The notes below the pieces were generated by a model. The model ran no database searches, was not told the DNA's origin, and worked only from the letters and a program-made list of their open reading frames with translations. A stretch of 64,000 bases of DNA, taken from Octopus vulgaris (lineage: Eukaryota). The translations under genes and the position numbers were made by a program. Of the stretch, positions 31,783 through 64,000 are shown in pieces (position 1 is the first letter of the stretch; every line of letters starts with the position of its first letter). Location of the stretch: positions 2,728,001 through 2,792,000 of the forward strand of contig CATOCA020000001.1 in NCBI GenBank assembly GCA_951406725.2. Direction: 5' to 3'.

Positions 31783-31882
31783 NNNNNNNNNNNNNNNNNN
31801 NNNNNNNNNNNNNNNNNNNNNNNNNNNNNNNNNNNNNNNNNNNNNNNNNNNNNNNNNNNNNNNNNNNNNNNNNNNNNNNNNN
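31783..31882. other. Scaffold gap (100 N)
   Basis: Exactly 100 Ns, the usual placeholder for unknown gap size. Confidence 0.98.
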
Positions 31883-32599
31883 ATCTAATTGACTTCTACA
31901 AATTTTACCTCCAACTGAACTAAATAATTTGTGTGAATCACTGAGAAGCGGTTCTATTGCTATATTTCATTCGAATATTTAGCTACAAAGTAATTCTGTT
32001 CTACTACAAATGCAGGAATATCCAATAAATGGATCTTTTGGAAATATAGAAACATATGACACAAGAAAAAGATCTCACACGATCAGGAAAAGATACAAAA
32101 GATAAAATATACACCCTTGAGCGGCTTTTCTCCCCTTAAGAATTACCGACTACCTTCCTTGGTTGAGGAACGCATCTCACTTAAACATTCCAGCTTTCCT
32201 AAGGTGGTATGCCCGTTCTAACTCCAGGCACTAGAATTAGAACGGACAATGGTCCTAAGTGCATTTGATTATGCTATAACCATTAGAAAAATTATCATCT
32301 GCTCAACATCTTAAACCTTTATTCTTACTTTAAAAAGAAATATCAGACATGCGGAAAGAGGGAATGATGATAAATGGGTTGGAGAAAATCTCCTTCAGTA
32401 ACCTTATGAGGTTAATAAGGCACTATTTGCAGATACTAAGTGAAGTAGTGTAAAATTTACAGAAGATGAACTGGACAGGTATATACAGGAGCCCTACAAT
32501 GACCCAGAGTAAGATCAGTAGTTCCCAGTGATGGACGGTTTCAAACACGGAATGAAGCTAGGAATCAACAATGATTTCAACAAGAATCACGCAGATAGT

Positions 32600-34626: not shown

Positions 34627-35126
34627 AATCAATAAACTTCTTTTACATACCGATTGACTCTCAGGTTCAAGATCTGAAGCTCATTTCTCAACACTTCCTT
34701 CCAGTTTTCTTGAGGTTCTCTCCACATTTACAGATCGGTGCTCTTTATACAGCTGATCTTATTCATACACATCACATGGTCATACTAGCACAGTCGTCTG
34801 TCTTGCGTACTACATACATGTGATAACTCTCGACTTTTATCTTAAAACGTGTCAGCATTTTATACCTGCACACTGACAGTGACCATCCAGTGGAGCATGC
34901 TGGTTCCATTTTGTTCAAGCCTTTACACGTCCTCTGTGTTCACAACATACATTTCACTACTATGTAGCATACACAGCTGTTCATACACAGGCTGCCCATT
35001 GGTGATCAGAAAGTCCCACAATAATAAAATATATATTATTAATATCTAGATTTAAAATATTTTATAATAAATTTGAAAAACCTTGAAATATTTATTTCAG
35101 TGTTTCCCAAATCTCAGAACAAGCAG
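34627..35126 (+). repeat. ~500-bp segmental duplicate of 45070-45551, ending in a truncated exon copy (35101-35126, FPKSQNKQ)
   Basis: Near-identical text and near-identical ORF-track peptides at 34620/45036 and 34849/45274. Confidence 0.9.
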
Positions 35127-35719
35127 GTAAATAGGTTTACCTGAGCTATTTTGTTCGTAGGAATTATTAAGAATATGTTCTATTCCTAAATTCCAATTGC
35201 ACGTTTTAACTGTAAACTAATTAAATTAAAGGGATCGATATTATTGACATTTCATAAATTACCCACTCAAGTTAACATGTTTGGTAAAATGGATAATTTA
35301 GAAGACACAATAGATTGAATATTCTCTTTTTGAACGGGGATATATAATATGTTATACTTTATCAGGTGAGTTAAAGATTTTGTTTGTTTTACATTTTACT
35401 ACGTTTACTGACTGGTTATTGTTGTTGTTATTCAAGCAGGTGCCACTCATTATCTGGTTCACTTACAAGGAAATACATTCCAAGTTTGAACACTTGTCTT
35501 TCGTCAAGACTTGTAAATCTATCACTACATCCATTAAACATTGTCTTTGTCCAAGTGGAAGATTTTCGTCTGTTGCACAGACAACCATTGCCACTTTCCC
35601 ATTCATAAAAGTAGATACTGACTGTATGATGCAATGCAAGCCAATGCATTCAAAGAAATGACAAACGTATTGAAGGAAGAAAGGATACAAGACATTTTAG
35701 AGAGCCTAGTTCGATATTT

Positions 35720-36706: not shown

Positions 36707-36757
36707 ATTATGGAAGAGATTTCAGCGAACGGACAGAACACAGTTTAAGTCTTGATG
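36707..36757 (+). CDS. Candidate 51-nt phase-1 microexon (YGRDFSERTEHSLSLD) of the propeller gene
   Basis: atattcatttcAG acceptor, G/GTGGGT donor, open frame, flanks homologous to the other microexon units. Confidence 0.5.
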
Positions 36758-36823
36758 GTGGGTTTTTAATTATATTACCTCATCGATTTCCATAAAGATT
36801 CTGTCTTATTTCACTGATAGTAA

Positions 36824-38453
36824 ATTTACCATGACCTTGTATGACGTAAATTAGGTGTTGACAGTTTTGGGGGACATCTGATATTTCTTTCCTCTACACC
36901 TGTGTAGGAATTAATTATTACTCACTTAGGATGAAATCTATGTCATTAAGGTGTCTTCAAATATTTTCTACATCAGATGACATTCTGATGTACGTAGATG
37001 TGGGCAGTTAAAATTAAAGATTACCAGCAGCAATGTTTCACAGAGAGAGTAGGTGTTTGTAGTCTAAAGTGAAATGTATTTGAAGATAGATATTTGATGA
37101 TTAACCTTGTTGACAGTGGAAGTGAGCAGAAAATTATAAGAATGTTTGATTAGTGAGGTCTACTGTAGATGTCAAAACGCCATGTCATAGATGCGTCACA
37201 AATACGTACGTTGATGTGGGCAGCTAAAATCAAAGATTAACAGAAGAAATATTTCACAGAGAGCAGGTACTTTCTGTCTAACGGTAAGTGGTGTGGTCAG
37301 TTTTTGTAGATAGATATATGGTTATCAACTTGCTTGACATTGCAGTTGAGCAGAAAATGAGAAGTTTGGTTCATGAGGTTTACTACGGTAGAGGTGAAAA
37401 CGTTATGTCATAAATGTGACAGAAATACCACCTTGACCATGATCGACTGACTGAGTGTATTGAGGGCACCAGAGATTACAGTGCACCCTCCACTTCTGTC
37501 TTCATCTTGACCTTCTCACCTACGTAGCATGTCGTATTTCGTCAAAAACTCACCTTTGGATACGCTCTCAGTGACCTCCTCTGCTCGCGTATATAACTCT
37601 CAACATCTGTGCATCTCTAAATATTTTCAGTGAGCTGGTTACCTGTCCCATCTGAAATTTTGTCATTTACCATGAGCTTATATGAAGTAAATTAGGTGTT
37701 GACAGTTTTGGGGGACATCTAATATTTCTTTCCTCTACACCTGTGTAGGATTAATTATTACTCACTTGGGATGAAATCTATGTCATTAAGGTGTCTTCAA
37801 ATATTTTCCACATCAGATGACATTCTGATGTACGTAGATGTGGGCAGTTAAAATTAAAGATTACCAGCAGCAATGTTTCACAGAGAGAGCAGGTGCTTGT
37901 TGTTTGAAGTGAAATGGTGTGAAATGTATTTGAAGACAGATATTTGATGATTAACCTTGTTGACACTGGAAGTGAGCAGAAAATTATAAGATTGTTTGAT
38001 TAGTGAGTTCGACTGTAGATGTGAAAACGCCATGTCACAGATGCGTCACAAATACGCAGGTTGATGTGGGCAGCTAATTTCAGGTACTTTCTGTCTAACG
38101 GTAAGTGGTGTGACCAGCTTATGTAGATCGATATATGGTTATCAACTTGCTTGGCATTTGAGTTGAGCAGAAAACGAGAAGTTTGGTTCGTGAGGTTTAC
38201 TACGGTAGAGGTGAAAACGCTATGTCATAGATGTGACAGAAATACCTCCTTGACCATGATCGACTGACTGAGTGTATTGACGACACCAGAGATCACAGTG
38301 CACCTCCACTTCTGTCTTCATTTTGACCTTCTCACCTACGTAGCATGTCGTATTTCGTCAAACACTCACTTTTGGATTCGCTCTCAGTGACCTCCTCTGC
38401 TCGCGTATATAACTCTCAACAACTGTGCATCTCTAAATATTTTCAGTGAGCTG
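36824..38453. repeat. Tandem ~830-bp duplication (third copy ~40570-41265), each with an internal ~200-bp repeat; possibly a decayed LINE endonuclease fragment on the minus strand
   Basis: gtaaattaggtgttgacagttttggggg at 36846 and 37687; shared 3' part ending cagtgagctgg; minus-strand LLLVIFNFNCPH resembles GDFN.PH. Confidence 0.85.
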
Positions 38454-41331
38454 GATAGCCGAATTTTCAACACGAAGAATATTTCACAGAGCCTGTATCC
38501 ATCCCCTTTTACAACCATCTTCTGGAGTAGATGAATCAGAGGAAGACTGTAAGTATGAAATGATATTAATTTACCGATTTCTATACATTTCACCTTCTCC
38601 CGAGCTTTTGTATGTTAGAACGACTGAGTACAGATTCTATCCCTAATTAGATTCGAAAAGTTTGTTGTATAATAATTCTATTCAATATATCGATATTACT
38701 GAAAGTTCACAAAATATCCAACCAGGTTAGCATGGTTTGTAAAATGAAAAATTGAAACGGGAATATATTTTGTATAGTTTTGAGAAAGAGAGAACTAAGC
38801 TAATTTGTTTAGGAATATAAATTTTGAGTTAATGACAGCCGTTTTTGTCACATTTTTTTACCAAGTCTACTCGTAGGTTATTATTGTTATTGTTGTTATT
38901 TAAACGGATGTTTCTTATAATCTAGAAGAATTACAATGAAATGCGTTCCAAGTGTAAACTCTCTGTTATGTTACACTGGTAGTAATTTTATTATTACATC
39001 CACTACACATTGTCTTTTCCCGAATAGAAAACATTTCTTTGCTACTGTGATAATCGGTATCTGCCTTTCTTACATCATGAAAGATACAGGTTGCACGATG
39101 CAAGTGAATCACAGGCAACAAGCCCGACATTTCTCGTCAGATTTCCAGGCTCCTATGGACTAGATGAGTTGTTACTGTCCAAGTCAGTTCTTCTTCAGAA
39201 CTACTTCCCTTCTTCATTCGTAGAGGAATTATCTCACTTAAACATCACTGCTTTCATATAGTGCTATGCCATTCCTGACACCAACCACCTTGTAAAGGGT
39301 TCTAGGTGCATTTTATTGTTGCAAAGCATGTGAAATATTATCGTCTCTCTAAGAAAATGTCTAACAAAATCAGGAACGAAGCATTTGAGCTTGAGGCTTG
39401 CAGCAAGAAAGAAGTATTTATCTTTGGGTATAAGGCAAGGTGAGGCTGTACATTAGAAAGTTTCAAGTCTTGTACAAGGTTTTGTTGTAGGCATCATATA
39501 ATGGTAGAGTTTTTGGGTATAAAATTTGTGTGATTGATGGCTTGTGGAAGAGAGAAAGATTTAGCGTAGAGATGAAGCTAAAGCGAAACTAATTCGCAAG
39601 TTCGCACCGATTGCAATTCTGATTGCTAAGATTTCCATGGTCAGAGATCAACTACACATCGACAAAATAACTCTAATGAGACTGAAAGTGTGACTGCAAA
39701 AGAATCCGTTGACATCCTGAGTGTTTGGGACATGCCTTGTAAAGGTGGGACCAACATACATAGAAAAATAGAAGTGATTTGAATGTTGTATCGTTGGATC
39801 AGTCCAATGCTTAGGGATGTGAACAACATAAGCCATCGAGAAAAGCAATGGCCTTCGTTTACATACTGGAGGATTTTAAAAATATGACGAAGAGTTGGTT
39901 TAACAATTTCCAAATGCTATTCGTTACACACATATTATACAGAGAGTAGGATTGGCGTGAAACTAGAGTAGGATGCAAAATGTCAGTCTTTGTTAATGAG
40001 ATGTTACTCAGATCAGCAGACTGCTCAGCAGATATGGCTGAAGAAACATCATCGATGACATACAAATAAGGGAAAGATATCAAAAGAATATGCTAATAGT
40101 TTTGGACAACCGGAATGGATTTAATCCTTGGTCGAGAATAACGCTTAATGCAAACAACTAAAAGGGTTTTTTAATTGTCAAAGGGCAGCAGAAACAAGTG
40201 ATATACAACGTATCAAGAGAAACCATGACATATTTTAATGACAAATTTGTAAGTATTTCGTATGCTGGTAGGCTTCCCTATTGTCTAGTAAGAGTAGAGA
40301 TATTGAGATCATGGTAAAAATCGATAATGGTTTATAAGCAATAGATTTGTGAAAACCTCAAAGTAAATATAGTATATGATGTTTCTGACATGGCTTGCGT
40401 ATGTATTTCTGAGAATCAGTTCTATTATGTACCATTTCGGATGCATTTTATGCAATGATGTGTAGATAAACGGTTGTGTAGTGTTTGGGGTACCTGATAT
40501 CAATTAAAGTAGTAGAATAAATCATTACTCATCTGGAAAGAAAACTGTTTCCGTAAGGAGGTTTCATACATCTTCTGTATCAGAAGACATTCTGGCGAAC
40601 GTTGGTGAGAGCGGTTAAACTTAAAGATTACCAGCAGCAATGTTTCACACAGAGAGTAGGTGCTTGTTGTCTAAAGTGAAGTGGTGTGAAATGTATTTGA
40701 AGATAGATATTTGATGATTAACCTTGTTGACATTGGAAGTGAGCAGAAAATTATAAGAATGTTTGATTAGTGAGTTCTACTGTAGATGTGAAAACGCCAT
40801 GTCATAGATGCGTGACAAATATGCAGGTTGATGTGGGCAGTTAAAATCAAAGATTACCAGAAGCAATGTTTCACAGAGAGAGCAGTTGCTTTCTGTCTAA
40901 CGGTAAGTGGTGTGACTAGGTTTTGTAGATAGATATATGGTTATCAACTTGCTTGACATTGGAGTTGAGCAGAAAACGAGAAGTTTGGTTCGTGAGGTTT
41001 ACTATGGTAGAGGTGAAAACGCTATGTCATAGATGTGACAGAAATACCTCCTTGACCATGATCGACTGACTGAGTGCATTGACGACACCAGAGATCACAG
41101 TGCACCCTCCACTTCTGTCTTCATCTTGACCTTCTCACCTACGTAGCATGTCGTATTTCGTCAAACACTCACTTTTGGATTCGCTCTCAGTGACCTCCTC
41201 TGCTCGCGTATATAACTCTCAACAACTGTGCATCTCTAAATAATTTCAGTGAGCTGGTTACCTGTCTCACTTGAATTTTGCCGTAAGTTTTTAGTGATGA
41301 TGTCTCTCACACCTGATTTCTCTCTGATCGC

Positions 41332-41528
41332 CTCACTCTTGATGTGCAAATTTAGCAACACTCCATAACCTCGATTTTTCGATTGTACTTTGGGCCATTA
41401 TCAGGCTCACTTCCTCCCTCTTCGTTGTGTACCAGCTTTCACACCTGTTGTAAATTGCAGGTAAATAGGTGTCGTTGAAGAGGTTTACACGATTGGTCCA
41501 ATCCAGCTTCGTTTTGTGACCAACTTTC
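41332..41528 (-). mobile_element. Short RTE-like LINE fragment inserted in a duplicated intron unit
   Basis: LFNDTYLPAIYNRCESWYTTKREE; absent from the paralogous unit at 36240-36280. Confidence 0.55.
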
Positions 41529-41988
41529 ATATATCACCGCACTGTAAGGTGACATCCAACATAATTTAACAATATTGTAATTACTTCACGTAATTATCTC
41601 TTTATAGCTCTGTTTTTCAGTAGTTGAGTTGTCCTCTCTTTATACCTGTGCCTTAAACTCCCTGAACATCAGAGAAATACGGAAGGAAAGAGAAAACTAA
41701 AAGCAAATTATTGTTATAAAGAGAAAATGAAATTAAATAATTACAATATTGTTAAATTATATTTGATGTCTGAATACAAAGAGTATAGATAGGAAATTAG
41801 TTAATATTTTGGTGGCTCTTAATAAAGAGTTTTGTTATATTGAATCTGTAAAGCGTGCTGACCAAAAGCATAGTGGTCAGCCGTTGACCATTAAAAATAA
41901 AGATATCTTACGGTAATGGAATATTTTTGATTGATAGATATAATCATATTATAGTGTAAAATGTAAAACTTGAAAATATATTTTTCCG

Positions 41989-42051
41989 ACACATAGTCGC
42001 AAACAACACTGTCTCCAAACTTTCCTATGCTTGAAACAGAATCATTTGATC
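41989..42051 (+). pseudogene. Decayed 63-nt microexon (T*SQTTLSPNFPMLETESFD)
   Basis: Acceptor CCG instead of CAG, donor ATGAGTATAAA instead of GTGAGTATAAA, in-frame TAG; homologous flanks. Confidence 0.5.
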
Positions 42052-44094
42052 ATGAGTATAAAATATCATTACCTTATCGATTACTGTAAATTTTAAATTT
42101 ACTGAATGACTGACAACATCTTCCAATCCAAATTTTGCATTTGAAAAGTTTGATGCATAATAATTCTATTAAATATTTGTTGTGCAAGATTTTTTTATGT
42201 GAAGTCGTTTGTTGAAACAGATATTATTATATTTCGGAATGGTCATTTTGCCACTTTAGCCAATAAAACATATCGATATTATTGTAATTTCACAAAATAT
42301 CCGATGTGGTGAGCATGGTTTGTAAAATGGATAACTTCGAAGACAATAGATTTTATATTTCACTTTGGAAGAGAAAACTAATATTTGTAGTTGTTTAGCG
42401 ATAAACATTCGTGTTAATGACATTTCTCTTTGTTTTACATTTTCTACTATGTTTGCTGATAGATTAATATTGTTATTTTGGCTGATATTTCTAAAAAAGT
42501 ACTTTGAAATGTATTTCAAGTATAAGCAGTCTGATTTATTTCACAGATATTTCATTACATACGCGAAACATTGCCCTTATCCAACTTACTTCTGTGATAG
42601 TTGTTGTCTATATTTCTTACTTCAAAACAGATACTGGTTGCAAGATACGATACAATAATTGACTATCTCTTCATCCTTTATCGTCTGATTTCCATGCTCC
42701 CACCTCTTGATCGGATAGCAGACAAATCTCAGTTAACCATTCTAGGTTTTATATGAGGGTATAATTTCCTAAAACAAACCATTTGATAAAGTGTCCTAGG
42801 TGCATTTTATTGTGGTACAAGCAAAAGAAACGTTGATGTCTTTCTAATAAAACCTCAAAGAAAGTCAGGAATTAAACTTTTAACTGAGAGTTTGCAGCAA
42901 GAAGGAAGGAAAGAGCAAAAACTGCATTATATAAGCATTATATAATAGTAAGGGTTTGTGGTATAAAATTGAAGGGATTTATGACTGATATAAGGCAGGA
43001 AGAGTTCACTTATGAAAGGAATCTGAATCACAATTAATTGGCCAATTGAAATTAGTTTCAATCCTTAATGACAAGCTTTACGTGGATGTACATGCTACGA
43101 GATCACCTATACACCTACAAAATAATTGATATGTGATGGAAAGTGTGCAGAGGACTGGAAATCCCTGACTTTCTTGGTTTGAAGGACATGAAATGTCAAA
43201 CTGGGATCAACACACAAAGGAGAATTGAAGTAATTGGAATGTTGTACGGCTTGATCGCTCTAAGGAATATGGTTGTGTACCATATAATTTTATTGATGAA
43301 ATCAATGAAATTCTTTTACATACTGGGAAAAATTTAAGGTCTGATGATGAGCTGTTATAACAATTTCAAAAGGCAGTTCATTACAAACCATTTTACAGGG
43401 AATGTCATCGGAATTGGAGTAGGGTGCACAATATTAATCCTTCAGTTTGTTTGGAGATGTTACTTAGATCAGTAGTCTGCTCAGAAGAAATGACCCAAGT
43501 GAAAGCACCAGACAAGACATTCATGGATGACATAAAAATACTATGTTGAGACCAAAATGTTATGCAAATATTTCTGGATAGCCTGGGTGGACTGATTACT
43601 TTGTCAAGAATTTGACTTAAAGCAAATAAATAATACAATCTGTTATTTGTGGAAGATCAGCAGAACAAAGTGAAGTTCAAAGTAGGAGGAGAAACTATGC
43701 ATACGTTTAGGGAAAAACTTATAAAAGTTTCGGACAGTGTTGCGCTGCCTCTTTGTCCAATAATTGTAAGGACATTAAGATGAAAACGAAAACATGGGAA
43801 TGGGTTAAAAGAGAGAATTCGAAACTTCTTGGCAAACGTAAGATTCAATGCTTCCAGTTTGATCTATATTTGCGTCATGTTTATATATGCTTAATTGTCA
43901 GTTATTGTGTATCATTTCGGATATGTTTATGCAATAGTATGTAGATGACCAGTTAAATGTAGTTAATAAGGTTTTGTGCAAGTGTACAATGTTTCAGGAT
44001 ACCTGCTGTCGCGGTGTCAGATTGTTTGAAGTTTGTCCAGCAATTAGAAATTGGTGTGCAGTAATTAATTGATTTATCTAAAATAGTAAAAAAG

Positions 44095-44795
44095 TCGTTT
44101 CTGTTTTGTTTATTCGATTGTTATTTATTTTATTCTCTGATAAAGTTGGTGCTGGGGCGGGCTTATCTCAATATATTGTGTCTATTGTGTGTGGGAGACA
44201 GCTCTCTCTCATGAAATCTTACCATGTGTAGTTTAATTTCTACTCGGCCCTTTAATAGATCTATAACCAGAGGTAGCTGGTCATAGCCTCAGTGAAAAAT
44301 ACAGATCTAACCCGTCAGATATTCCATTCTTTCATTTTGTTAATCATCACACAAGGAACTGCTAAAATGCAGCGTTTTGTTGTGTACGGCGGATTGTGGT
44401 AGCAGTCAGGGTAGAATATGATATCTCTCCACCGTGCAGTTTGTAATTGTACATCTGATCTCCTTCTAGTGTTAACGACTTTTGTAATGGTCAGGTTAAA
44501 CATTGCCAGAAAATCACGGCTTTCTCCCTATAGTACTAAGCTCCACTGGTGTATATCAGTGTTTTCAGCTTGCGAGACGACTGGTGTAGCAACTTCTGTG
44601 TTTATAGACAATTAATGGGACGGAAGTGTTTTGGAAATGGTGTTGTATGAACTGTGTGCAATATTTTAGTTAAATTAGGAAGATTTGAGTTATTATATCA
44701 CGAATTATGTCGGATGTTGCAGTTAAAAAAATATTATCTCTTCATATCTTTTAACAATGTTTTAAACTTTTATTTTTGCTGTTGTCTTTTCTTAG
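44095..44795 (+). repeat. Diverged duplicate of the intron segment preceding the large exon (~49958-50690)
   Basis: Shared blocks ttctgttttgtttattcga, cagatctaacccgtca, ggtgtatatcagtgttttcagcttg; ends at a paralogous acceptor cttttcttAG. Confidence 0.8.
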
Positions 44796-45525
44796 ATACA
44801 ACATTAAATTTATCGTTCCATCCACTAAGCATTGTCTTTATCAAAGTAATGACTTTGGTTTTCTGCTGAGAAAACCATTGTCTCTTTCTCTTTCAAGATA
44901 AATACTAGCTGCATGTTACAATACAATCGAATACATCCTCATCATTTATCGTCTGATTTTCTTTCTAAAATGCATTGGATGGGCGGTCTCTACCCAAGAC
45001 ACTTCATATTCTGAGATACTACCCACTCCCATTGGTTGAGGAACATATGTCTCTTAAAGATACCCGCTTTTCTACCGATTGACTCTCAGGTTCAAGATCT
45101 GAAGCTCATTTCTCAACACTTCCTTCCAGTTTTCTTGAGGTTCTCTCCACATTTACAGATCGGTGCTCTTTATACAGCTGATCTTATTCATACATATCAC
45201 ATGGTCATACTGGCACAGTCGTCTGTCTTGCGTACTACATACACGTGATAACTCTCGATTTTTATCTTAAAACATGTCAGCATTTTATACCTGCACACTG
45301 ACAGTGACCATCCAGTGGAGCATGCTGGTTCCATTTTGTTCACGCCTTTACACGTATTCTGTGTTCACTACATACATTTCACTACTATGTAGCATACACA
45401 GCTGTTCATACACAGGCTGCCCATTGATGATCAGAAACTCCAACAATAATAAAATATAAATTATTAATATCTAGATTTAAAATATTTTATAATAAAATTT
45501 AAAAACCTTGAAATATTTATTTCAG

Positions 45526-45597
45526 GGTTTCCCAAGTCTCAAAACAAGCAAGTCCAGACAGAGGCATTTACTTCAGAAGATGCATCACAGCAAGTTG
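45526..45597 (+). CDS. 72-nt phase-1 microexon FPKSQNKQVQTEAFTSEDASQQV
   Basis: atatttatttcAG / G-GTGAGT consensus splice sites, open frame, multiple of 3. Confidence 0.72.
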
Positions 45598-46283
45598 GTG
45601 AGTATAAAGTCACTAATTGATTTCTATCAATTTTACCTTCACCTGAGGCATTCATGGATTACTTAATAATACTAAGGAGAGATCAGAAGGATATGCAAAT
45701 AATTCTGGTTAGACTGGATTAACTCATTATTTGGGCAAAAGTGTGGTTTAAATCGAATAAGTAGTGCTGTGTATCGTTTGTAAATGATCAGCAGAAACAA
45801 GTGAAGTTACAAATAGCAGGAGAAATCATGCCAAAAGCTTGAAGACAATGGTACGGTAGCTTGCTGAGAGACACGTCTTGAGGCAATCGGATCAAGGCAC
45901 ACACTGTGATGGAGTTAAAATCAAAACATAATGCAAAATAAATTTGGCGCTTCCAGTTTGATTTATATCTCTGTCTTGCTTATATATTCTTGAGAGTCAG
46001 TACTATTCCAGATATAATTCCTTTGCAGTAATATGTGGATGAAATGACACGTATAGTTAATGAGGTTTTGTACAAGGTTTTTAGGATACTTGATATCACT
46101 TTCTGCTCCACTTGTTTAGTAGCAATCATTGCTCACCTGAAAATATCTGCTTATTAAGGAGGATTAATGACATTGAAATATCTTCAAATATTTTCTGAAT
46201 ACCTCACAAGAATAATATTTTGATTATTAGGAAATATAAAGATGTTTTTCTATGAAGTGTAAAATTTAGAATATTTATTTCAG

Positions 46284-46334
46284 AGACGCCAGCACTTGTT
46301 GACAATGAAGTTCAAACAGAAGTAGAACCAGTTG
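46284..46334 (+). CDS. 51-nt phase-1 microexon TPALVDNEVQTEVEPV
   Basis: atatttatttcAG / G-GTGAGT, open frame, multiple of 3. Confidence 0.75.
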
Positions 46335-46643
46335 GTGAGTATAAATCAACATTACCTTTTTGATTTCTATCAAGTTTGCCATTACCTCATCTACTTTATT
46401 AAGGAGGATACGTGAGAAGTAAATGAGATATGTAAGATGTCTTAATTGAGAGCGGAGATTTAGGAATGCCAATCAATTTTGTGGAGGGCATAAATAATGG
46501 GCCCACTGTTGAAAGTATATAAATATTGACCGAAACCTGTGTGAACTCTTGTAGACCATTGATTATAGGAATCTCTCACAATAACAGAATATAGATTATT
46601 GGTAATGATAAAATGGTTTTAGTGTAAATAATATTTATTTCAG

Positions 46644-46697
46644 AGAATCTAAAGCTTGAAGGGAAATAAGTGCAGACGATGGTAGCAGAGCCAGTTG
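46644..46697 (+). pseudogene. Decayed 54-nt microexon NLKLEGK*VQTMVAEPV
   Basis: Intact acceptor, in-frame TAA, donor mutated to ATAAGT. Confidence 0.65.
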
Positions 46698-47476
46698 ATA
46701 AGTATAAAATAACAGCCCACAAATGTCTATTTTGCCTTTGTTTCTATGGCTGCCTCATGTGTCGATAGAGAAAATGGTGAAATACGACAGAGAGTGATCT
46801 GGGAGGGAGGGTTAGTTTATAAGTTTGTGAAAGGAAGGTAGTAGAGGGAGGAGGAATGGTGGATATGGTTGGGGATGAGAAACAGTAGGGCATCATATGT
46901 GCATGTAGGTACATGAGGGAGAATGGAGGAGAATGCGACATGTGTGGGGGAGGCATTGTTGGGGGACAAACAGGCGCTTATGCCCTTGATTTAGGTTGGT
47001 GGTTGTTCTCAAGCACAGCAAACTGCCAAGTGACTGTTAGGCTCAACATTTCAAGATCATTACTCACCATTTCGTCCCATTCTTCCTGGGTATTCATTAG
47101 GGAAATCTGGAGGTGAGAGAACAATGCCAAATCGTAGATTGGGCTCCGATAGCTGAAAGCGAAAATTAAGCTAAGAGATAATCAGTGTTATCAAGTGATA
47201 ATTATATAAGATAATTATTAGATTATGTAGATATCTTAATAGAGTGATTCTTAGATTATGTGGGATGTCTTAATATGGAGATATATGAAGGTTAGTCTAT
47301 TTAGTAGTGGACCTGAATATTGAGTTATTACATGGTATCCCTATAGGAAGTATGAAAATGTTGACCCAAGCCGTACGGGTCACCAGTTGACCATCAAGGA
47401 CAGGAATGTCACAGAATAACAAAATTTAGATTATTAATTAAGATAAAGACATTTTTCTGTAAAGTGTAAAATTTAG

Positions 47477-47542
47477 AAAATTTTGTTTCAATTACTTTAA
47501 CGCTTGTTGACAATGAAGTCCAAACAGAGGTGGAGCCAGCTG
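47477..47542 (+). CDS. Microexon paralog (NFVSI)TLTLVDNEVQTEVEPA; ancestral acceptor lost, possible in-frame upstream AG
   Basis: Homologous to 46284-46334; tttcAA at 47490-91; alternative AG at 47475-76 gives an open 66-nt exon; intact GTGAGT donor. Confidence 0.5.
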
Positions 47543-48074
47543 GTGAGTATAAATTACCAATACCTTATTGATTCCTATCAATTTTACCATTATCCGAGCA
47601 ACTTTGTTTGACAGAATGACTGAGAACAAGTTCTTTTGCTACATTTATTTCGAATGGTTAGCTACACATTTTTTTTCGATTCTTGTACAACTACAGGAAT
47701 ATCCAAGAAATGGATTTTATAGAAAAGTGGAAGCATCAGATATTCTTCCACTCAGAAAAAAAGGCGTCTCAAGATAAGGAGAAATATGCAAAAGATAAAA
47801 TATAAACCCTTAAGCGGTTCTGTCCCTTTAAGGAGAATAAATACCGTCTGTCATCTCAATTTAGTCTCTCTCGTCCTCTCCCTTTTTCGCTCTCTTCCAC
47901 TCCCTTTGTATACAACAAGCAGCAGCTCCTCTCGTTCCCAGTCAAGTAACCACATCAATTTGTTTTTTAAAATATTGTTATTATTGAAATTTAATAAAAT
48001 GTCCACCAAGGTTATCGCTGTTGGCAAAATGGCTAAATTAGAAAACAGAATAGAGTTAATATTGTCCTTTGGGA

Positions 48075-48285
48075 AGGTGGTGAGCTGGCAGAAACATTAG
48101 AACGCCGGGCGAAATGCTTAGCTTTACTTCATCTGTCTTTACATCCTAAGTTCAAATTCCACCGAGGTCGATTTTGCCTTCCATCCTTTCGAGGCCGATA
48201 AATTGAGTACCAGTTGCGTACTGGGGTCGATCTAATCGACTGACTCCGTCGCCAAAGGATTCTGGCCTTGTGCCTAGAGTAGAAA
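48075..48285 (+). mobile_element. SINE family 2 copy
   Basis: ggtggtgagctggcagaaacattag...gaggtcgattttgccttccatcctttcgaggccgataaattgagtaccag. Confidence 0.8.
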
Positions 48286-50690
48286 ATGATATTGTCCTTT
48301 AGAATAGGAACTAAAAGGATTTTGTTGTTTAAAGGTAAACAGGTGATTTAATGACAAAGTGTTTGTTCGTTTTACATTTTTAGTAAGCTTACTGATTGAT
48401 TATTGTTGTTGGCGCTTTTGCTTAACCAGATGTTATGGTGAAACTTGTTCCAATAGTGAACAGCCTGGTTTCTTTTCACTGTCATTACGTCCACTATTCA
48501 ACCATTACATCTATTCAATATTGCCTTTATTCAAGTAGAAGGCTGCTTTGCAGCTCAGACAAGCTCTCTCTCTGTCTTTCTTTTTCTCTCTCTATTTCTC
48601 TCTCTCTCTTTCTCGCTCCCTTTCACTATCTGCAAGTTTCAATACAGTAAATGATATCATCCTCTCCCTTTTATCATCTGCTCTCTATGCTCCCATGTAC
48701 TGGATGGGTGGTCACTGTCCATGTCATAACAGTAAACTACCCATAATGATTGCTTGAGGATTACCTCTCAATTAACCATTCCAGCTTTTTCATGGTGGTA
48801 TGCCCTTCTTATCACCAACCACTTTACAAAGGGTCCTGGGTGAATATAATTGTGGCACAAACACTACAAGAGATTGCCATGTCCTCGGCAAGATTAAACC
48901 TCCCTCTCAACCTTACGGTGTCAATTCTCATCCAACAACCACCTCCTAGTGTGTAGTGGGAGCATTTGATCATAGCACCAGCATTAGTGAGGTTGTGTCA
49001 CATTCCAAATTATTAGAAAGTTAGTCCTCACTACTCTATGATGTGTTTGTTCACTGATATGTTTAAGATGGGAGAAGAAGAGATTATAGAAGAATCGGAA
49101 TGCAAAGACTAAAAGATACGAGACAATAAGGATAAAAAAAGTGATTCGAAGGAGCGGTGGAGGCTGACAACAGTAAATGATGGAGACTGAGTTACAACGG
49201 TGTGTGAGGTACCAGAGTGCTTAATTATTTATTAACATTCCTTGGTTGCTCACTCTCACTGTTTCTCTTGCCCTCCTCCTCTCACTGGGTAATCATGTAT
49301 GTCTTCTACTATAGGACACCTGTTTCAATCCCTCTGTCACAGTCGAACCTGTCATCCCCTGACACACGACCACCTCCTCCTCCAATGCTCTCCCTCTCAA
49401 AGGTTTTTTGTCTTGCAAGTTCTTTGGTGACCCCCACCAGTGCTTGTGGATCCAGACCCCACTGTAAGGTTGTTGGTGTTGGGAAGAGTATCCAGCTGTA
49501 AAATCCTGCCAAATCAGACAGTGAAGCCTGGTGCATTCTTCTCCCTAGCCAGCCCCTGACAAAACGTACAAACCCAGCCAGAATGGGGAACCGACGTTCA
49601 ATGATGATAGTGGTAGTGATGGTAGGTAGCGATGGATACTAATTACTTGCAAATACATCAAAGTTATACATGTTAAATTAGGAGATAGACTGACCAAATC
49701 TCAACTGAGATAATGGATAATTACAGGTTTCTGGATTGCCATAAATACTAGTAATTACTAAAAGATCACATGGGTAATTACAGGTTTATATATTTCTGTG
49801 AATATTTTCATATATATCTGTATATTTGTAAAACACTAATTGGTATTTTAAATCAGAGCATTTAGAATTAGCCCAGCATTAAGGAAGTGGAGTGCAGAAA
49901 GTTATTGACTATAAATTATCAATAATTATTCGTTATCTCTAAATCGGTAAAAGGCAATTTCTGTTTTGTTTATTCGAATTTTATTTACCTAATTCATTGA
50001 TAGAATTGTTGTTGGGGCTAATCTAATTTTTAACGTCTAACATGGGGTCAGGGAGAGAGAGAGAGAAAGAGAGAGATCATAAATCTTACGATTGGTTGTG
50101 TAATAGCTACTCAGGCCATCTTTAGTACTCACATACACACACACATATATATAACAATACGCAGCTGGTCACAGCCTCCGTAAAAAACACCCAGATCTAA
50201 CCCGTCAAATATTCCATTCTTTCATCTTGTTAAACATCACAGAGTTAACTTACAAAATACAGTGTTTTGTTTTGTGGGGTGGAGTGTGGTAGCAGTCGGG
50301 ATGCAATAAATTATTTCCTCATTGTACAGTATGTGGTTGTACATGTGTAGACCTTCTAGTATTAACCACAATTGAAGTGGTCAAGGTATACATAGCCAGA
50401 TCATCATGGATATCGCTCTTCAGTAACAAACTCCGCTGGTGTATATCAGTGTTTTCAGCTTGTAACCCCACTGATGTTGCTATTTCCGTGTTTATCTACA
50501 ATAAATGAAATGGAAAGTGTCTTGAAAATGGTGTGGTAGGAATGCTGTGCAATGTTTTCGTTAAATTGAGAAAATTTAATTTTTTTTGTGACTCGAATTG
50601 CGTAGGAAGTTGCTGTTACAAATTAATATTACCCATTCATGTCTTTTGAAAATTTAATATAATTTTATTTCTGTTGTTATTGTTATTCAG

Positions 50691-53512
50691 ATGATCACTA
50701 CATGCAGATACCACGTTTTGACTGTAAAAGTATTATGAAGTCGCATTCATCCAAATTCCGTCCCCTTTGCCCAGCTGTGTCCAAAATATTGCAGCTCACA
50801 GACTCCGATAATGATTCCAAGAACCTGGTCACAGTTTCAAGAATCGTTGAAATCTGCAATGGAATAGTAACCTATTCACCAGATTTGAAGTTAATAAGTT
50901 GTGCCACAACAGGCGGTGATTTTGATTTTCATTGTTCTTCTAATGTCACAGACATGACAAGAATTGGTGAACACACTGTTCTAGCCACAATTCCTTTCCG
51001 CAAGAAAATAGTTTTCATTAATCCATCAAGTTTCCACATAAAATCTCTGGATTATAGTTTCTTTACAATTTCTTATTTCGAACATTCTACATTTGTAGGG
51101 ACTGAAATGTTTAGTAAGACAATATATCTCATAGACTGGGATAAAAATAAATTTGAAGAAAAATTTAGTGTGCAAGAAATTGTTGGAAACATAGCAGTTG
51201 GTCCACAGTATCATATCTTAATAGCCTTAGCTAATATAAATAGAATTAGCTGTTACACAATAGATGGCAGACACTTGTTTCAGTTGAGGACCCATTCCAT
51301 CGATATTCCAACCGACCTCACCGTATATCGAAATTATTCTTACGCTCTGCAAGGAAATGTAATTTACAAGATTTCAGCAAACGGTGCTGTGTCCCAAAGA
51401 GAAATTGGGATAAAAGCTCGATATATTTGTGTGGCAACAAATAATATTTACTTGACTGACCGTTTTGGTCTTGCACATATTATTAGGACAAATAAAGATT
51501 TTTGGCCTCGGCTGTCTTACCATCACCAAGACCATGTCCCGAGCCTGATAAACCAAATCCATATTGATGACCCCTCCAACATTACAACGATTCTACCTAT
51601 GTCAGCCTCTTCAGTAGTAATTATATATCGGGATCTAAAAGCTATATTAGTTACTGACGAAGGGCAACCGTTTGGTGGAAAATGTTTAACCTTTAAACTC
51701 CAGCCTTCTGTTTTCTGCAGAGTGGATTCGAACACATTTCTTGTCCTTTTTAGTGAGGACAGGAAACTTCAGTATATTACCTGTCCACAACTAACTGAAG
51801 GTGATTTAATAGACGTCGAAAACAATTACATTCAAATGTGTCATATGGTATCAAATAGGTGTTTGGCTCTGACCACCAATGAAGGTAAAGTGGAGGTACA
51901 TATTTTATTGATTAAAACGGATCATGTCGACATTGTAAACAGAATTTCATTGGAACATGACAATGTCGCCATTGCTGCTACTCCAATTAATTTTGTAGTT
52001 GTAGACAGAAAGAAACGTAACTTGATATTTTATTCAAGCTTTGGTGAGGAGCTTTCCAAGAAACACATTGAGTTCAATGGCTATCCTCATCATGTTTTCA
52101 CAGACAAATTATACTTCTATGTTATCTTCAGGAGAGAGTCTTTGATGACTTGTTACAATATAACTGGACAAAGGAAATGGCAGTTGAAACTTCCTTCAAA
52201 CTTTCGCTGTCACGCTGCTGTTTTCCAAGGAACAGCTTATGTGCTGGACGATCTGCTCAGTCGGATTCTTCTTTACAAGTACCATGACTGGTCAGACTGT
52301 CATGTAACCTTTCAAAATCCTTATAATAAAAATCTAAATATTCGACTCGAAGAAAAGGAGAATGACCAAGTTCTCATTGGTGAAATATGTCATCTGGCAA
52401 ATGGACAGTTGGTGTTGTCCGACATATATAATGATTGTTTGTTATACATTTCCAACGAAGGGAACATTGTGTCTAGATTATCTCTGCCGTCTACAGCTAC
52501 AGATATATGTCGATGGAATTATAATCAGATAGGCGTCACATTACCTCTAGAGAAGCAATTACGGGTCGTCGGAAACGTATCAAAGGCAGTTATAAGTGTA
52601 GCATTAAACCAGGCTTATGTACGGGTGTGTAAGCTGGGTGAAAGTCATATTATTTGTTATTGCGATAAACCATCGCATTTAGATATTTTAAACATTAAAA
52701 ATTGTAATGAAGTTCAAATAATTCATAAAATTAATATTCCTTTTGTAATGAAATCATTATCATTAGAAAATGAAACACTAAAACTATTGATTGTTGGTAA
52801 GAAAGCAGTATTCTTCTACAAGATCATCAGGAAGAGGGGAAGAAGTGTTTTACCATCCCAAGTGAAAACACCCTCCAATCTCTATGGTTATGACGGTGGT
52901 CCTTATAGCATTGAGATGATACCCAATATTTTACTGTCGCAAGGGAAAACACAATCCAATCTCTATGGTGGACGTATTGATAAAATGTGTGTCCATTTGA
53001 TAGACAACAGCCGCATGTTTGCTGTAAATGAGCATGACTTGCTGGTGAAAGATCATGTCACAAGAAGCCAAATTAACATGTTCATCGATCTGGTAGATGT
53101 ATTTTCTAGAAACATCAGTCTCAGTGAAATGTTGTCTTCTAGATTGTATCTACAAGATCTCACAGTTTCTGATAAAGCTCATGAAGTTGTTGTCCCTCAA
53201 AGTTTTGGAGATAAACATCCAGTGGAGATTGGTTGTTTGGTTATTACAGAAAATAACCTGGTTGCTTTATATGACAGCACAAATGAAAACATTAAGATAT
53301 TAACTTTTGATGGTCAACTTGTTGACTCTATCAAGTTAAATGTTGTCCCTAGACATATGTGTTGCTGGCGATCAAACACATTGGTTATAACGACCAATAA
53401 CTATCAACTTCTGACATTAAAAGTGGAATTCCCATTGGTCTTGGCAACTTACCACACGGAAAATAGATACAATTGTATCGCTTGTCGATCCGACAATCTA
53501 CTGGTGTGTAGC

Positions 53513-53565
<53 letters not shown>

Positions 53566-55528
53566 CAGCAGTAATGTTGGTGGTGGTACCCGCATACCCG
53601 AAATTGAAAACGGCCTGTTTTATATATATATCGATGAAATACAGTCAGCTGTCCGTATTATGAGAGAAATAGACTTATTTTGGATGTGCTACAGATATAA
53701 TATCACCCATATCTCAGTTATTGCTAATGACAACATCATCGTCAATACCGAGAGGCTCATCACTATTCTGAACCCGAACGGGCAATATTTATATTCATTT
53801 AAGCACAGTATTTATTCCCGACCCATTTCTATGGCAACCGATGATACTTATTTGTACATTACTGGACGGAAGAACATCTATGAAAACACGAAAAAGTATC
53901 GTATTGTCTCATTGTTGCAGAACGGTGAATACAAGGGAATATTCTTAAATGAAAGACATTATAAACGTCTGTTGGATTTCAACAGTATTAACTGTAAAGG
54001 CCCGAGGATTGTTGCAAACTATGACTCGTACTTATATATTGAAGGTTTGTACAAGATTAATCGGCAAAAATTCCCCGTTTCACGGTTACAAACAAACAAT
54101 TGTCCTGTTCAAGTAAAAGATATCGATATCTCTGATGAAGGAAAGACAGTTGTGTGCGAAATGGCCAATAGTGGAAATGTTAAACTATTTGATGATGACG
54201 GGAAGTTGCTATGTTACAGAGATTTTGGAAGTTTTGTTGGTGGTGTATGTTTTACAGGAGAAAGAAATATCTTGGTCACACTCCCTAACAGACAAGAAAT
54301 ATTTCAACTGAAGTCACAAAACTTGGAGAAATATAAAGTTTGGGAAAGTCGAGTACCTTATGGTATAATATGGAGAAAAGTGGGAAATATTTACTGGTGT
54401 GTACATATCAACATGATTGAATGTGATACTATAAAAATTGATGGGGACCAACTGAAGGTTCTGGAATCTATGTCGTTATCGAATCTTGATTTTGGCCTTC
54501 ACTTCCCTTCCATTACATCTCAGAAGAAGAAGGGAATGTTCAGTAATGAATTATTTAACAAACTTAAAAACGGTGGCGATGGAGGAGAAAGAAGAAGTAC
54601 ATCAAGAGAAATAGAAGTAAGACGTGGTAATTACATAGCGGAAAGTATGTTAGGAATTGATGAAATATCAGTGAGAAGACTGCCACATAGAACAGCAATG
54701 TTCCCGCTTTCATTTTCTCTATCTGGTTTACTAGATTCAAATTCGATGTTTTGTTTTCTTAATGCTTTTAAGCTAATTATGTTACAAGACAATAGTATCG
54801 TCGTGCTCCTCCATAAATGTACTCTCATGGTCACCAGTGGAGACGGTCATCTGCTTTACAGTCAAACATTTGAAAAAGAAGCTCAAGATATATGTCAATG
54901 GACCGATGAATCATTTGTAGTCCTCTTTCGGGACGATAAACAACTGATGTTCTTCGATACAGATTTGTGTCTTTTAAAAAAGATCACAACTGAAAAACCA
55001 TACAATTTAATGTACAAAAAGAACGGCAAAAATCTGGTATGTGTGTTTGAAGACGCTCCAAATGAATGTAGTAATATTCCATATGTGACATACGCAGACA
55101 TACTTCACATTGGCGGTGAAATGTACGAGTATAAGGGCCGAGTGAATTTAGGGAAGGAGGGGAAGGTTGTAGCAATGGGTGTGACATCGAATGAAGACAT
55201 TGTCGTTCTTAAGTACAAGGAAGATCATTACGATGTATGTTGGTACAGAGACAATTGGGTAAGAAGTCAACAACTAATGATTCAAGGTGAGGAACCATTT
55301 CCAAACATTTTCAACAAATCCTTGACCATCCACGGCGAAAATATTTACATATCAGATTTTAATAACAATATCCACCAAGTATCTGTAGACAGCAAATGCG
55401 AAATCTTTCTCAGCTCTCAGGAAATTGAAGTCTGTCACATCAAGGCCATACATGTTTCGGATTATTTCATCATGATTTACGGAAATTTGGACAACCGTTT
55501 TGATGGATTATTTTATTATGAGAGATAA
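50691..55528 (+). CDS. Large terminal exon (~1610 codons) encoding about six tandem NHL/TRIM-type beta-propeller modules
   Basis: Uninterrupted 1608-aa ORF in AT-rich DNA; ttgttattcAG acceptor at 50689-90 in phase 1; recurring motif such as IGEICHLANGQLVLSDIYNDCL...LPSTATDIC...IGVTLPLEKQLRVV near aa 45, 294, 559, 843, 1138, 1357. Confidence 0.88.
53510..53572 (+). repeat. Coding (AGT)n microsatellite = 21 Ser
   Basis: In frame within the large ORF. Confidence 0.95.
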
Positions 55529-56118
55529 GGCCCTATATTGAATCAATATATGTTACGAGCAATTGGCATTAGCAGCCTTTTGACTATATTTCTTTATTCG
55601 ATGGGATGCTTCTGGAATAGTCACACAAAATACGTAGGTTTTAACCTGGATCCTCGAACAAAGATAGTTACCATAATGATTCCTAATTAGTTAATTGATA
55701 ATAAAATATTAATGAACTAGAAACAGTGTATGTATTCCACTGGAATAGCGTTTCACCCCCCATCCACACACACACAATAACGACATTATCTGATTCAAAT
55801 TGTTACTCTTATATGTTAACAATCTTATAAAAGAAACACAAAACTCCATTTAAATTCTAATCTTTTCTCACCATGTCGTCTTTCCTCTCAGCAAATCTTT
55901 CAAATGTTTTTTTTCTTCTTTACTTGAATATATTTTATATATTTAACCCTAATTTAAAGATAATGCTTAATCTTAGAAAGTTTGTTTGAATTAATCACAA
56001 AATTATATTCATAAACCAATGCTCGAAATATATATTACATTGTAAAGCTACGGCAGAACATATTCTAAAATATATATTACATCATACGTTATAGAGCTGT
56101 GTGATTCATCTCAATGTA

Positions 56119-56124
56119 AATAAA
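56119..56124 (+). promoter_or_regulatory. Candidate polyadenylation signal AATAAA
   Basis: About 590 bp after the stop, followed by a T/GT-rich tract; another AATAAA near 55700. Confidence 0.4.
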
Positions 56125-57769
56125 TAATATATTATTCAACAAAAAGATGTTTTCCTGATTTTCTTATTTTTAAAAACTGTTTTGATATTAATGGGGTTTG
56201 ATAGGTCTAGTTTACAAATCTTTGATACTATTTCAGCATGTCACAGAGAGAATCTGTTCCAGATATTTTGTTGTAATTTCGATGAAGAGCAGCTGTTCTA
56301 AATGTTCAGTGGCAACACAGAAGAACTTGGTAAGGACAACCACAGATCTTCATTGTAGATTTCGACAAGATCGATATAAGCTGTGTGGGTAGAATTAGTA
56401 GAGACTGCATGGAATCAGGCATTGTATTGGCCACCTGTCTGAAATATGTTTACAACAACATTAAGTTCATTTACGGATGCACGCACACAAACACACACAC
56501 ACATCCGCAAACATACATACACAGGCATACAAACACACACCGACACATATATACACAGTGTTTGTTCTAAAGAGGATTAAATTTGATTCGTTTGTGTAAG
56601 AAACTATGGTCAGGCTATTAGAGAAACCCAACTTAGAATCTCAGACGTTCCCACCGATCATAATGGGTCTCGATTAAAAAATGCGTGTGTGTGTGTGTGT
56701 GTACATACATATATACATATGTACAAGTACACACATCGCCCATGCCATTCTCTTTGTCATCATTTAACGTCTACTTTTCCATGCTCGCATGGGTCAGACA
56801 GAATTTATTGAGGCAGATTTTCTATAGCTGGACGCAATTGCTGCTTCCAACTCTCACCTGTTACCAAGCACAGCAATATTTTCCGACGGCCGGACATCAC
56901 TTGTATTGATGGTAAGGCCGTTTTTAGTCATCACATGATATCAAGTACACACATGATGAGCTTCTTTCAGTTTACGTTTACTAAATCCACATACAAATCC
57001 TTTGGTTAACCTTTGGCCTAAAGGAGAAGATAATAGCCCAAGTAACCGTGGAGTGGGACTGAACTCGCGACCACATACTTAGGAAGAAAGCTTTTGAACC
57101 ACACAACCATGGGTAATTAATCTTCTTAAGGTCATCATTTACTGTTTCGAAACCAATTCTATGCCCTATAGCTGAAATCCCTTTTTTCACAAAACTGAAT
57201 CGCTTCAAATTGGTTGAAAAGGGTCAGTGCTCCGATACATTTCAAAATATTAAACTTCATTCAGAGAATTAGCGTAGATGAGATGCCGCTTTTGTTTTAT
57301 GCCAAGGAGAAATACTACTGAGGCTCAGTTTCAAGCAAGGCAAGAACAGGGATTGGTTGGACAGAGCTCTCTGACCTACTGTCCGTAACATCCCACCTAC
57401 ACCAGTCTGAAAGAGAGAAGCTGGACATTCCTAGGATGATGTTGATGACTATGATGATGGTGAAGAAAGAATTGGTTGAGTAATATAGGAAATCTTCATC
57501 TTTCAAGTTGGTATGACATTGTGTTTGAATGACCCTCCAACTTTTTGCTGAATAACGATTATAGAAACAGGTTTCTATATAAGGGAGTTATGCTGAGCTG
57601 GGGGGGTCACCAGTTTCCCTGTACACTGAGTTCATCAGGGAATCAAGGAAATTAAAGCCGGTCCTGACTGCCTTGGGGCTGTATTTGTTCAACATCTATT
57701 TGTATCATTGGAAGTATAAGATGAGAATGTAGTCTTTACGTGTAGCAGATGTCCAGGTTCTTTAAACAC

Positions 57770-62761: not shown

Positions 62762-64000
62762 CCGATATAATTTTTCACGCTGAGAGTTGCTGAAGCATGG
62801 AACAAACTGCCGGCATCAGTTGTTAGTTGTCGGAGCACTGCATCCTTCAAAACTTTCATGCTTTCTGAGATTCGCCAACACTACACCTGATTTTCTCCCC
62901 TCCATACACACGCAAGCATGGAACAAACTGCCGGCATCAGTTGTTAGTTGTCGGAGCACTGCATCCTTCAAAACTTCCATGCTTCCTGAGATTCGCCAAC
63001 ACTACACCTGATTTCCTCCCTCCATACACACGCAAGCATGGAACAAACTGCCGGCATCAGTTGTTAATTGTCTGAGCACTGCATCCTTCAAAACTTCCAT
63101 TCTTCCTGAGATTCACCAACACTACACCTGATTTCCTCCCCTCCATACACACGCAAGCATGGAACAAACTGCCGGCATCAGTTGTTAGTGGTTGCAGCAC
63201 TGCATCCTTCAAAACTTTCATGCTTTCTGAGATTCGCCAACACTACACCTGATTTCCTCCCCTCCATACACACGCAAGCATGGAACAAACAGCCGGCATC
63301 AGTTGTTAGTTGTCGGAGCACTGCATCCTTCAAAACTTCCATGCTTCCTGAGATTCGCCAACACTACACCTGATTTCCTTCCCTCCATACACACGCAAGC
63401 ATGGAACAAACTGCCGGCATCAGTTGTTAGTTGTCGGAGCACTGCATCCTTCAAAACCTTCATGCTTCCTGAGATTCGCCAACACTACACCTGATTTCCT
63501 CCCCTCCATACACACGCAAGCATGGAACAAACTGCCGGCATCAGTTGTTAATTGTCTGAGCCTCGGAGCACTGCATCCTTCAAAACTTCCATGCTTTCTG
63601 AGATTCGCCAACACTACACCTGATTTCCTCCCCTCCATACACACCAAGCATGGAACAAACTGCCGCATCAGCATCAGTTGTTATTGTCGGTTAGCACACT
63701 GCATCCTTCAAAACTTCCATGCTTCCTGAGATTCGCCAACACTACACCTGATTTCTCCCCTCCATACACACCAAGCATGGAACAAACTGCCGGCATCAGT
63801 TGTTATTGTCTGAGCACTGCATCCTTCAAAACTTCCATGCTTCCTGAGATTCGCCAACACTACACCTGATTTCCTCCCCTCCATACACACCAAGCATGGA
63901 ACAAACTGCCGGCATCAGTTGTTAATTGTCTGAGCACTGCATCCTTCAAAACTTCCATGCTTCTGAGATTCCCAACACTACACCTGATTTCCTCCCTCCA
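62762..64000 (+). repeat. ~121-bp tandem satellite (~10 copies, runs off the window) derived from a CR1-type LINE ORF2 C-terminus
   Basis: aagcatggaacaaactgccggc at 62793, 62914, 63034, 63155, 63276, 63397, 63518...; encodes AWNKLPASVVSCRSTASFKTSMLPEIRQHYT*; the first copy is preceded by an F-TLRVAE lead-in. Confidence 0.88.

Follow-up and report, generated by a model that had tools for sequence, protein, structure and literature searches.

A 64,000-nucleotide (nt) stretch of the Octopus vulgaris genome (assembly GCA_951406725.2, contig CATOCA020000001.1, positions 2,728,001 to 2,792,000; this whole stretch is called the window below) carries, at 50691..55528 on its forward strand, a single coding exon for a string of predicted beta-propellers. 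On balance we favor reading it as the last exon of a chimeric gene, in which a propeller module from a donor gene was likely inserted into a linker intron of an ankyrin-RING-Death gene, replacing the predicted Death domain, and whose product is likely a ubiquitin ligase built of ankyrin repeats, a RING, a linker and several propellers. The exon is open and spliced to microexons, its linker and introns are homologous to those of the host family, Death-like exons are excluded from genes of this type, a breakpoint separates host from donor sequence, and the coding sequence shows purifying selection.

Through the captured exon, a ubiquitin ligase has likely gained a new end for target recognition. 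This would be an exon capture with a mappable breakpoint, through which a ligase family swaps its signaling end for a recognition end, and it brings to light a large octopod family that is invisible to Pfam, is listed as uncharacterized and shows hypervariability on its predicted binding face. Provided that the full-length protein exists, it would represent a convergent rebuild of TRIM-NHL logic and offer a handle on intracellular immunity in cephalopods.

The terminal exon and its linker microexons

The stop-to-stop frame (50663-55528, +) runs for 1621 codons, a length with a chance probability of about 1e-51 at the base composition of the window. A splice acceptor at 50690/50691, in phase 1, trims it to the 1611 stop-free codons of the terminal exon, which is followed by a 3′ untranslated region (55529..56145, +) with an AATAAA near 56119 and, in one run, a poly(A) loose end at 56145. 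The sequencing runs come from five studies, one of them of a second organism; we took the small runs as RNA because their GT-AG joints are absent from the large run, and the records do not label them RNA. One RNA-like contig covers 50690-52804 with 3 differences and 0 gaps, and such contigs cover the exon piecewise. Frame, acceptor and RNA joints agree on one long stop-free exon, as a first-pass annotation made from the sequence alone had proposed; its further claim of a gene without introns fails, for the exon is single yet spliced to upstream microexons.

These microexons, all on the forward strand and all of phase 1-1, are A (36707..36757, 51 nt), B (38447..38548, 102 nt, with an acidic end), C (45526..45597, 72 nt, with a KQVQT motif of putative LC8 type), D (46284..46334, 51 nt, with an NEVQT motif) and E (47492..47542, 51 nt, a copy of D). 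The joints 36757-38447, 38548-45526, 45597-46284, 46334-50691, 46334-47492 and 47542-50691 occur in 3/3 small runs and in 0/1 large run; in a second set, which has one run in common with the first, the A-B joint is present in 3/4 runs and the C-D joint in 4/4. Joined from A to the terminal exon, the frame stays open for 1703 residues, and each of the two alternative frames contains 5 stops within the four small exons. The A-B joint carries window-type sequence, from which the remaining copies in the assembly diverge by 7-16% around A and also in the 5′ part of B; therefore this copy, or an unassembled twin, is expressed. Microexon E is probably skipped in the window copy because its acceptor reads AA in the assembly (47490-47491). 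The same AA stands in two sister copies, although RNA joins D to E, and these D-E joints probably stem from other copies or alleles. RNA-like contigs further contain a backward joint from 47539 to 36706, which we at first took for a back-splice; a hidden D/E-like exon inside the assembly gap upstream (described below), joined to exon A, explains it better than an RNA circle does.

LC8 anchors show a preference for D at -4 and K at -3. An xQT anchor with upstream D and K/R is found in 19 of the 33 distinct candidate microexon peptides, and 12 hand-picked peptides have the Q in 12/12, T+1 in 10/12, D-4 in 9/12 and K-3 in 7/12; the peptides are homologous, so these motif counts are not independent. 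Microexon A has five close copies, only in propeller-type loci, and D is present 1-5 times in sister copies. A weak protein search with exon B returned no relative. Exon C recurs in part, its frame broken, at 35101-35128; this fragment does not figure among the RNA joints given above.

Predicted fold and the donor family

The exon is predicted to encode five six-blade NHL-type propellers, one with a poorly modeled last blade, and a truncated fifth unit, all on the forward strand. For propellers 1 (50825..51502, amino acids (aa) ~45-270) and 2 (51545..52282, aa ~285-530) the only model is that of L037, a free-standing relative with 57% alignment identity; it predicts six blades and lists 23 strands for each. 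An AlphaFold model of the window protein covers aa 500-1611 (pLDDT, the predicted local distance difference test, 66; predicted template-modeling score, pTM, 0.45) and consists of all-beta domains with low-confidence loops between them; at this pTM the model does not fix the mutual placement of the domains. It shows five blades and a low-confidence sixth for propeller 3 (52367..53170, aa ~559-826; 19-20 strands), six for propeller 4 (53180..54043, aa ~830-1117; 24 strands), three and a low-confidence fourth for unit 5 (54104..54712, aa ~1138-1340; 12 strands and 4 of low confidence) and six for propeller 6 (54761..55525, aa ~1357-1611; 23 strands). The tandem NHL/TRIM-like propellers that the first-pass annotation had read from the letters are thus present in the AlphaFold prediction and are borne out by Foldseek, by Z scores against Brat and by a profile match to a B-box/NHL protein (P0078). 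Its module starts (aa 45, 294, 559, 843, 1138 and 1357) all fall where it had placed them, and its unit 5 is indeed shortened; its six propellers survive as six units, of which five are propellers and one is truncated.

Against the Brat NHL domain, propeller 4 scores Z 24.7 (root-mean-square deviation 3.5, 252 aligned) and propeller 1 scores Z 20.9 (3.1, 230 aligned). The five top structural matches of propeller 4 are all TRIM-NHL domains (Brat, TRIM2, Mei-P26, TRIM71; Z 22.8-24.7) at 10-13% identity, and because other six-blade propellers score only 2-3 Z lower, the family is not fixed by fold alone. Profile comparison, a sequence criterion, does tie the exon family to proteins of TRIM-like type: its profile hits the P0078 propeller at E 1.9e-9, and units 3-6 match that propeller at E 9e-9 to 9e-5. 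Between the units themselves, family profiles match at E<=1e-3 in 9/15 pairs and at E<0.01 in 12/15 (three reversed controls, E 0.03-0.29); with single sequences, 3/15 pairs beat all 200 shuffles, and BLASTP of the exon protein against itself gave 0 off-diagonal matches.

Searched by sequence against Pfam and PDB, the window protein yielded nothing significant. The Pfam NHL repeat PF01436 has no match in it, a divergent relative (P0061) reaching 18.5 bits against a cut-off of 20, and Atlas look-alikes of the exon protein carry PF01436 at low recognition. The window protein contains no transmembrane segment (maximum hydropathy 1.42) and no EGF or LDL repeats. Propeller 4 has a predicted top-face loop with 21 serines, encoded by an in-frame AGT/AGC repeat (53510-53572); in 8/8 sister copies this repeat is longer, by 3-63 nt, and each time the frame is kept. 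A viral origin of the propeller module is unsupported, matches in a viral structure library being generic propellers only.

The donor is a family of octopod genes, about 100 in number and each with a single coding exon, most of them on contig C28. A single unit used as query gave 167 genome matches. They fall at no fewer than 102 distinct places, C28 holding most of these, and open frames of at least 1600 aa contain 35 of the 102; the expanded family expected at first pass is there, and an ordinary single-copy gene is ruled out. We opened 22 full-length free-standing members and two further loci that are broken. Each of the 22 supplies a Met of its own and, without a change of frame, an N-terminal part of 130-190 aa; L037 has three N-terminal helices, which are absent from the window exon. 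These helical parts gave no match to the P0078 coiled coil (E 0.58) and no useful Atlas lead (best 0.79), and neither the exon nor 12 family members without host exons yielded a B-box or RING. In a protein search with the exon, 56/56 matches were named Octopus or Argonauta; a second search gave 27 matches, 9/10 of those checked being named Octopus, and relatives 97-99% identical come from O. vulgaris and O. sinensis. As far as these databases show, the family is restricted to octopods rather than to all cephalopods, so the earlier idea of a cephalopod-specific architecture keeps its lineage restriction and loses its breadth.

Together with its near-identical sisters (92-100%) the window copy makes up a subfamily of 9, which in a FastTree tree rooted on a divergent C2 member forms a long branch beside a C25 gene with an O. 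bimaculoides orthologue (support 0.91). Compared with its nearest free-standing paralogue, the window copy has a synonymous divergence (dS) of 0.85 and a nonsynonymous-to-synonymous ratio (dN/dS) of 0.34; compared with 23 distant paralogues the ratio is 0.33-0.49, a 24th being saturated. Among young free-standing paralogues (7 disjoint pairs), the corresponding ratio of proportions (pN/pS) is 0.32-0.56 in propellers 1-3 and near 1 in propellers 4 and 6. In propeller 4 of these paralogues, the top face (the b-c and d-a loops, as defined in an excerpt of PMC4015489) has pN 0.253 versus 0.059 on the bottom, with pN/pS 1.54 and p=0.012, which is one of 18 tests, with faces drawn after the variable sites had been seen and with no gene-conversion screen. 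These values are suggestive of a fourth propeller that varies most on its predicted ligand face in the free-standing paralogues. Two divergent single members, L040 on C2 and L121 on C9, have close matches in three Octopus species and are stable old copies, in contrast to the fast C28 cluster.

Host family, breakpoint and competing readings

The family ankyrin exon gave 116 genome matches. In 7/7 cases a distant copy of exon D has such an exon 3-54 kb upstream on the same strand, and the five loci of this kind that we opened all have the order ankyrin, RING, xQT microexons, 72-nt exon, Death-like exon. The RING exon of the paralogues ends in phase 1, and with the phase 1-1 microexons we count this as support for a RING-linker-propeller gene. 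When exon pairs are counted within 60 kb, the 41 ankyrin exons of C31, the contig that holds the window, are followed by Death-like exons in 35 cases, by a propeller exon in 3, by both in 0 and by neither in 3 (Fisher p=0.002); a Death-like exon accompanies 0/3 of these propeller-type genes, and none was found in the window or near the C28 copy. Ankyrin and RING exons lie 23-49 kb upstream of 4 of the 9 near-identical propeller copies, and at one sister locus (C31:3198k) ankyrin repeats are followed by a zf-C3HC4_3 RING. The ankyrin exons upstream of propeller copies are 53-100% alike and the propeller exons 97-99%, which suggests that the cassette moved between paralogues. Two public gene models, P0009 and P0099, join RING to propeller exon; a search with the ankyrin-RING part of P0009 (proteins up to 2820 aa) returned only P0009 and unrelated ankyrin proteins. 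The first-pass annotation had looked to a RING, B-box or death fold beyond the gap: a RING is present in the sister loci, no B-box was found, and the propeller exon stands in place of the Death-like exons.

The gap itself (31783..31882, 100 N) hides the 5′ part of the gene; its right edge lies some 19 nt inside the intron that follows a linker microexon. The sequence that follows (31883..32140, +) is the start of a linker intron, 86-91% identical to the post-microexon intron of ankyrin-RING-Death paralogues, with 13 matches in 9 C31 genes, each about 5 kb upstream of a Death-like exon. At the other end, a host-derived intron segment (49920..50730, +), 71% like 44059-44783, supplies the acceptor of the terminal exon. 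Up to about 50730 the likeness to the host linker intron is 65-78%, versus 50% for shuffles, and from about 50730-50850 onward the DNA resembles the donor propeller frame, which would put the host/donor junction at about 50710-50760. A host-like intron running into a donor-like frame implies loss of the donor's helical head and splicing of the remainder via the host acceptor.

We therefore propose that a single-exon propeller gene, minus its helical head, would have entered the linker intron of an ankyrin-RING-Death gene, its exon taking the place of the predicted Death domain. The window copy's own ankyrin and RING exons would lie in the gap. In TRIM proteins a coiled coil pairs two chains; here LC8 might do that job by binding the xQT motifs and pairing two chains. 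The propeller top faces, above all that of propeller 4, would bind a protein target, which the RING would then ubiquitinate. A Death form would signal onward, and a propeller form would bind and tag; the setting could be intracellular immunity. More tentatively, and at rather less than even odds, these genes may form an intracellular surveillance system of modular build in octopuses: about 100 genes for multi-NHL proteins, their ligand face diversifying, together with more than 100 ankyrin-RING genes with a microexon LC8 linker and a swappable end. The capture would then have rebuilt a TRIM-NHL-like ligase out of components that are not TRIM, LC8 standing in for the coiled coil, and the linker-propeller cassette would still be in the course of being grafted onto different ankyrin-RING paralogues.

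Several observations weigh against the chimeric ligase. The Death domain call is weak (Pfam Death E 0.0075, below cut-off, in the second exon only), the three C31 propeller cases are recent duplicates and not independent, and the P0009 and P0099 models, which skip the microexons, may be ab initio. RNA joining RING to linker was observed for none of the copies. The ligand-face excess belongs to the free-standing paralogues and is not shown for the window subfamily. Moreover, the propeller exon is intact in only 2/9 copies, the window and C31:9040k, and a search for ankyrin/RING matches found none in 71.8 kb left of the gap (including 40 kb beyond the window) or in about 74 kb upstream of C31:9040k; conversely, a frameshift or stop interrupts the exon in 4/4 copies whose RING is visible. 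Codon 4 of the exon is a Met, the first in-frame Met of the RNA-supported chain, and could start a RING-less protein.

The last of these points favor an alternative that we regard as unlikely, though the strongest of those considered, namely that the expressed intact copy is a 5′-truncated duplicate, consisting of the linker and propellers or of the propellers from the codon-4 Met, and acts as a RING-less scaffold or decoy like the free-standing members: neither intact copy has an ankyrin/RING exon beside it, every RING-bearing copy is broken within the exon, and the O. sinensis model P0002 starts at the codon-4 Met. However, the gap cuts inside the linker intron and RNA joins a further D/E-like exon to A, so that the gene continues upstream, and the small exons are open only in the phase-1 frame. 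Four C31 ankyrin exons (near 4538k, 5766k, 5937k and 6631k) are followed by assembly gaps within about 3.2 kb, which points to orphaned 5′ halves in the assembly and makes these exons candidates for misplaced 5′ halves; the window's 5′ half was not found at 6 orphan ankyrin loci.

We give still less weight to a fusion that is a decaying by-product of unstable segmental duplication on C31, transcribed from the host promoter and yielding no useful protein. Frameshifts or stops affect 7/9 copies, a 1-nt deletion being common to two of them, and against two broken copies the window has a dN/dS of about 0.5; some of the frameshifts sit at short base runs and may be assembly errors, and others do not. 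Against decay, the two intact copies, with a dN/dS of 0.19, are separated by indels that keep the frame, the RNA contig over 50690-52804 is gapless, the linker-exon join is also modeled in O. sinensis (P0058, P0100), and the split from the nearest free-standing paralogue is old at a low dN/dS (values above), a purifying signal that may partly predate the capture. A lesser and comparably improbable variant keeps the architecture of the chimeric gene and has the propellers bind RNA like Brat or TRIM71, as a post-transcriptional regulator rather than a protein sensor; the five best matches of propeller 4 are all TRIM-NHL domains, which according to an excerpt of PMC4015489 bind RNA via a positive top face, but their low identity to the octopus propeller, its crude net top-face charge (-1, 0, +1 and -1 in units 3-6 of the window protein; -5 to +4 in unit 4 among paralogues) and a hypervariable top face ill-suited to a fixed RNA site all speak against it.

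Other features lie apart from the chimeric gene. Left of the gap, at 27177-29946 (-), the window holds a LINE-type element with broken frames (Pfam RVT_1 and Exo_endo_phos), and at 62793-64000 a tandem repeat of about 121 bp (92-96% identity). Elsewhere in the genome, family ankyrin exons form a dense tandem array (G000:C9:9565800-9585700), and ankyrin and Death-like fragments with stops form another dense array (G000:C1:216930000-216965000). Downstream of a C30 ankyrin-RING-Death gene is a 319-aa open frame (L098:682-1638, -), which by its motif we presume to resemble an alpha-1,3-fucosyltransferase.

Relation to known systems

No published description of the propeller family or the ankyrin-RING-Death family was found in the literature searched, where an orthogroup listing in supplements may exist; a term search of the PMC9068888 main text gave 0 mentions of ankyrin, death domain, NHL or TRIM. 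Among known multi-propeller proteins, LRP2/LRP4 and DDB1 are the top Foldseek matches of the octopus model (E ~1e-20 to 1e-17), but with TM-scores below 0.2 and 7-11% identity they have only the arrangement in common with it, and the octopus exon is without EGF repeats, LDL repeats or a transmembrane segment.

One close relative of the window-type gene is the octopus ankyrin-RING-Death family, with which it shares ankyrin, RING and linker exons and intron sequence, and from which it differs in carrying a propeller exon instead of Death-like exons. Like Mind bomb (MIB1/MIB2), the sister loci have ankyrin repeats and then a zf-C3HC4_3 RING. An ankyrin exon on C26, a 52% match, lies 11-18 kb downstream of Mind-bomb SH3 repeat exons, and SH3_15, searched with the domain split over exons, gave 18 matches, all on C26 and C13 and 0 on C31. 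The octopus gene is nevertheless not a canonical Mind bomb: its RING is internal, followed by the microexon linker and a Death-like or propeller end, and the N-terminal repeats were not seen.

The linker, for its part, resembles multivalent LC8 clients such as ASCIZ and Nup159 in having several putative xQT anchors, and differs from them in carrying one motif per microexon, with copy number varying through exon duplication. In the excerpts of the LC8 literature that we drew on, TQT is the anchor and SQT and VQT sites also count (PMC5963919), and an xQT anchor is described (PMC12057147). A single-exon LC8/dynein light chain gene is present on C25 (L101:1489-1758, +).

With the TRIM-NHL proteins (Brat, TRIM2/3, TRIM71/LIN-41, Mei-P26) and the mollusc TRIM-like proteins with B-box, coiled coil and NHL propeller, finally, the octopus exon shares the six-blade NHL-type propeller. 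The likeness to TRIM/B-box-like proteins drawn at first pass does not extend to membership: the octopus gene is not a TRIM, because no B-box or coiled coil was found, on an annotation that covers the exons further 5′ only in part, and in the sister loci the RING follows ankyrin repeats upstream. TRIM-NHL proteins have one propeller, where the octopus exon has five and a half, and a top face that is positive (PMC4015489, excerpt), where the crude octopus charge is -1 to +1. The logic would nonetheless be the same in both, a RING, a dimerizing segment and a propeller.

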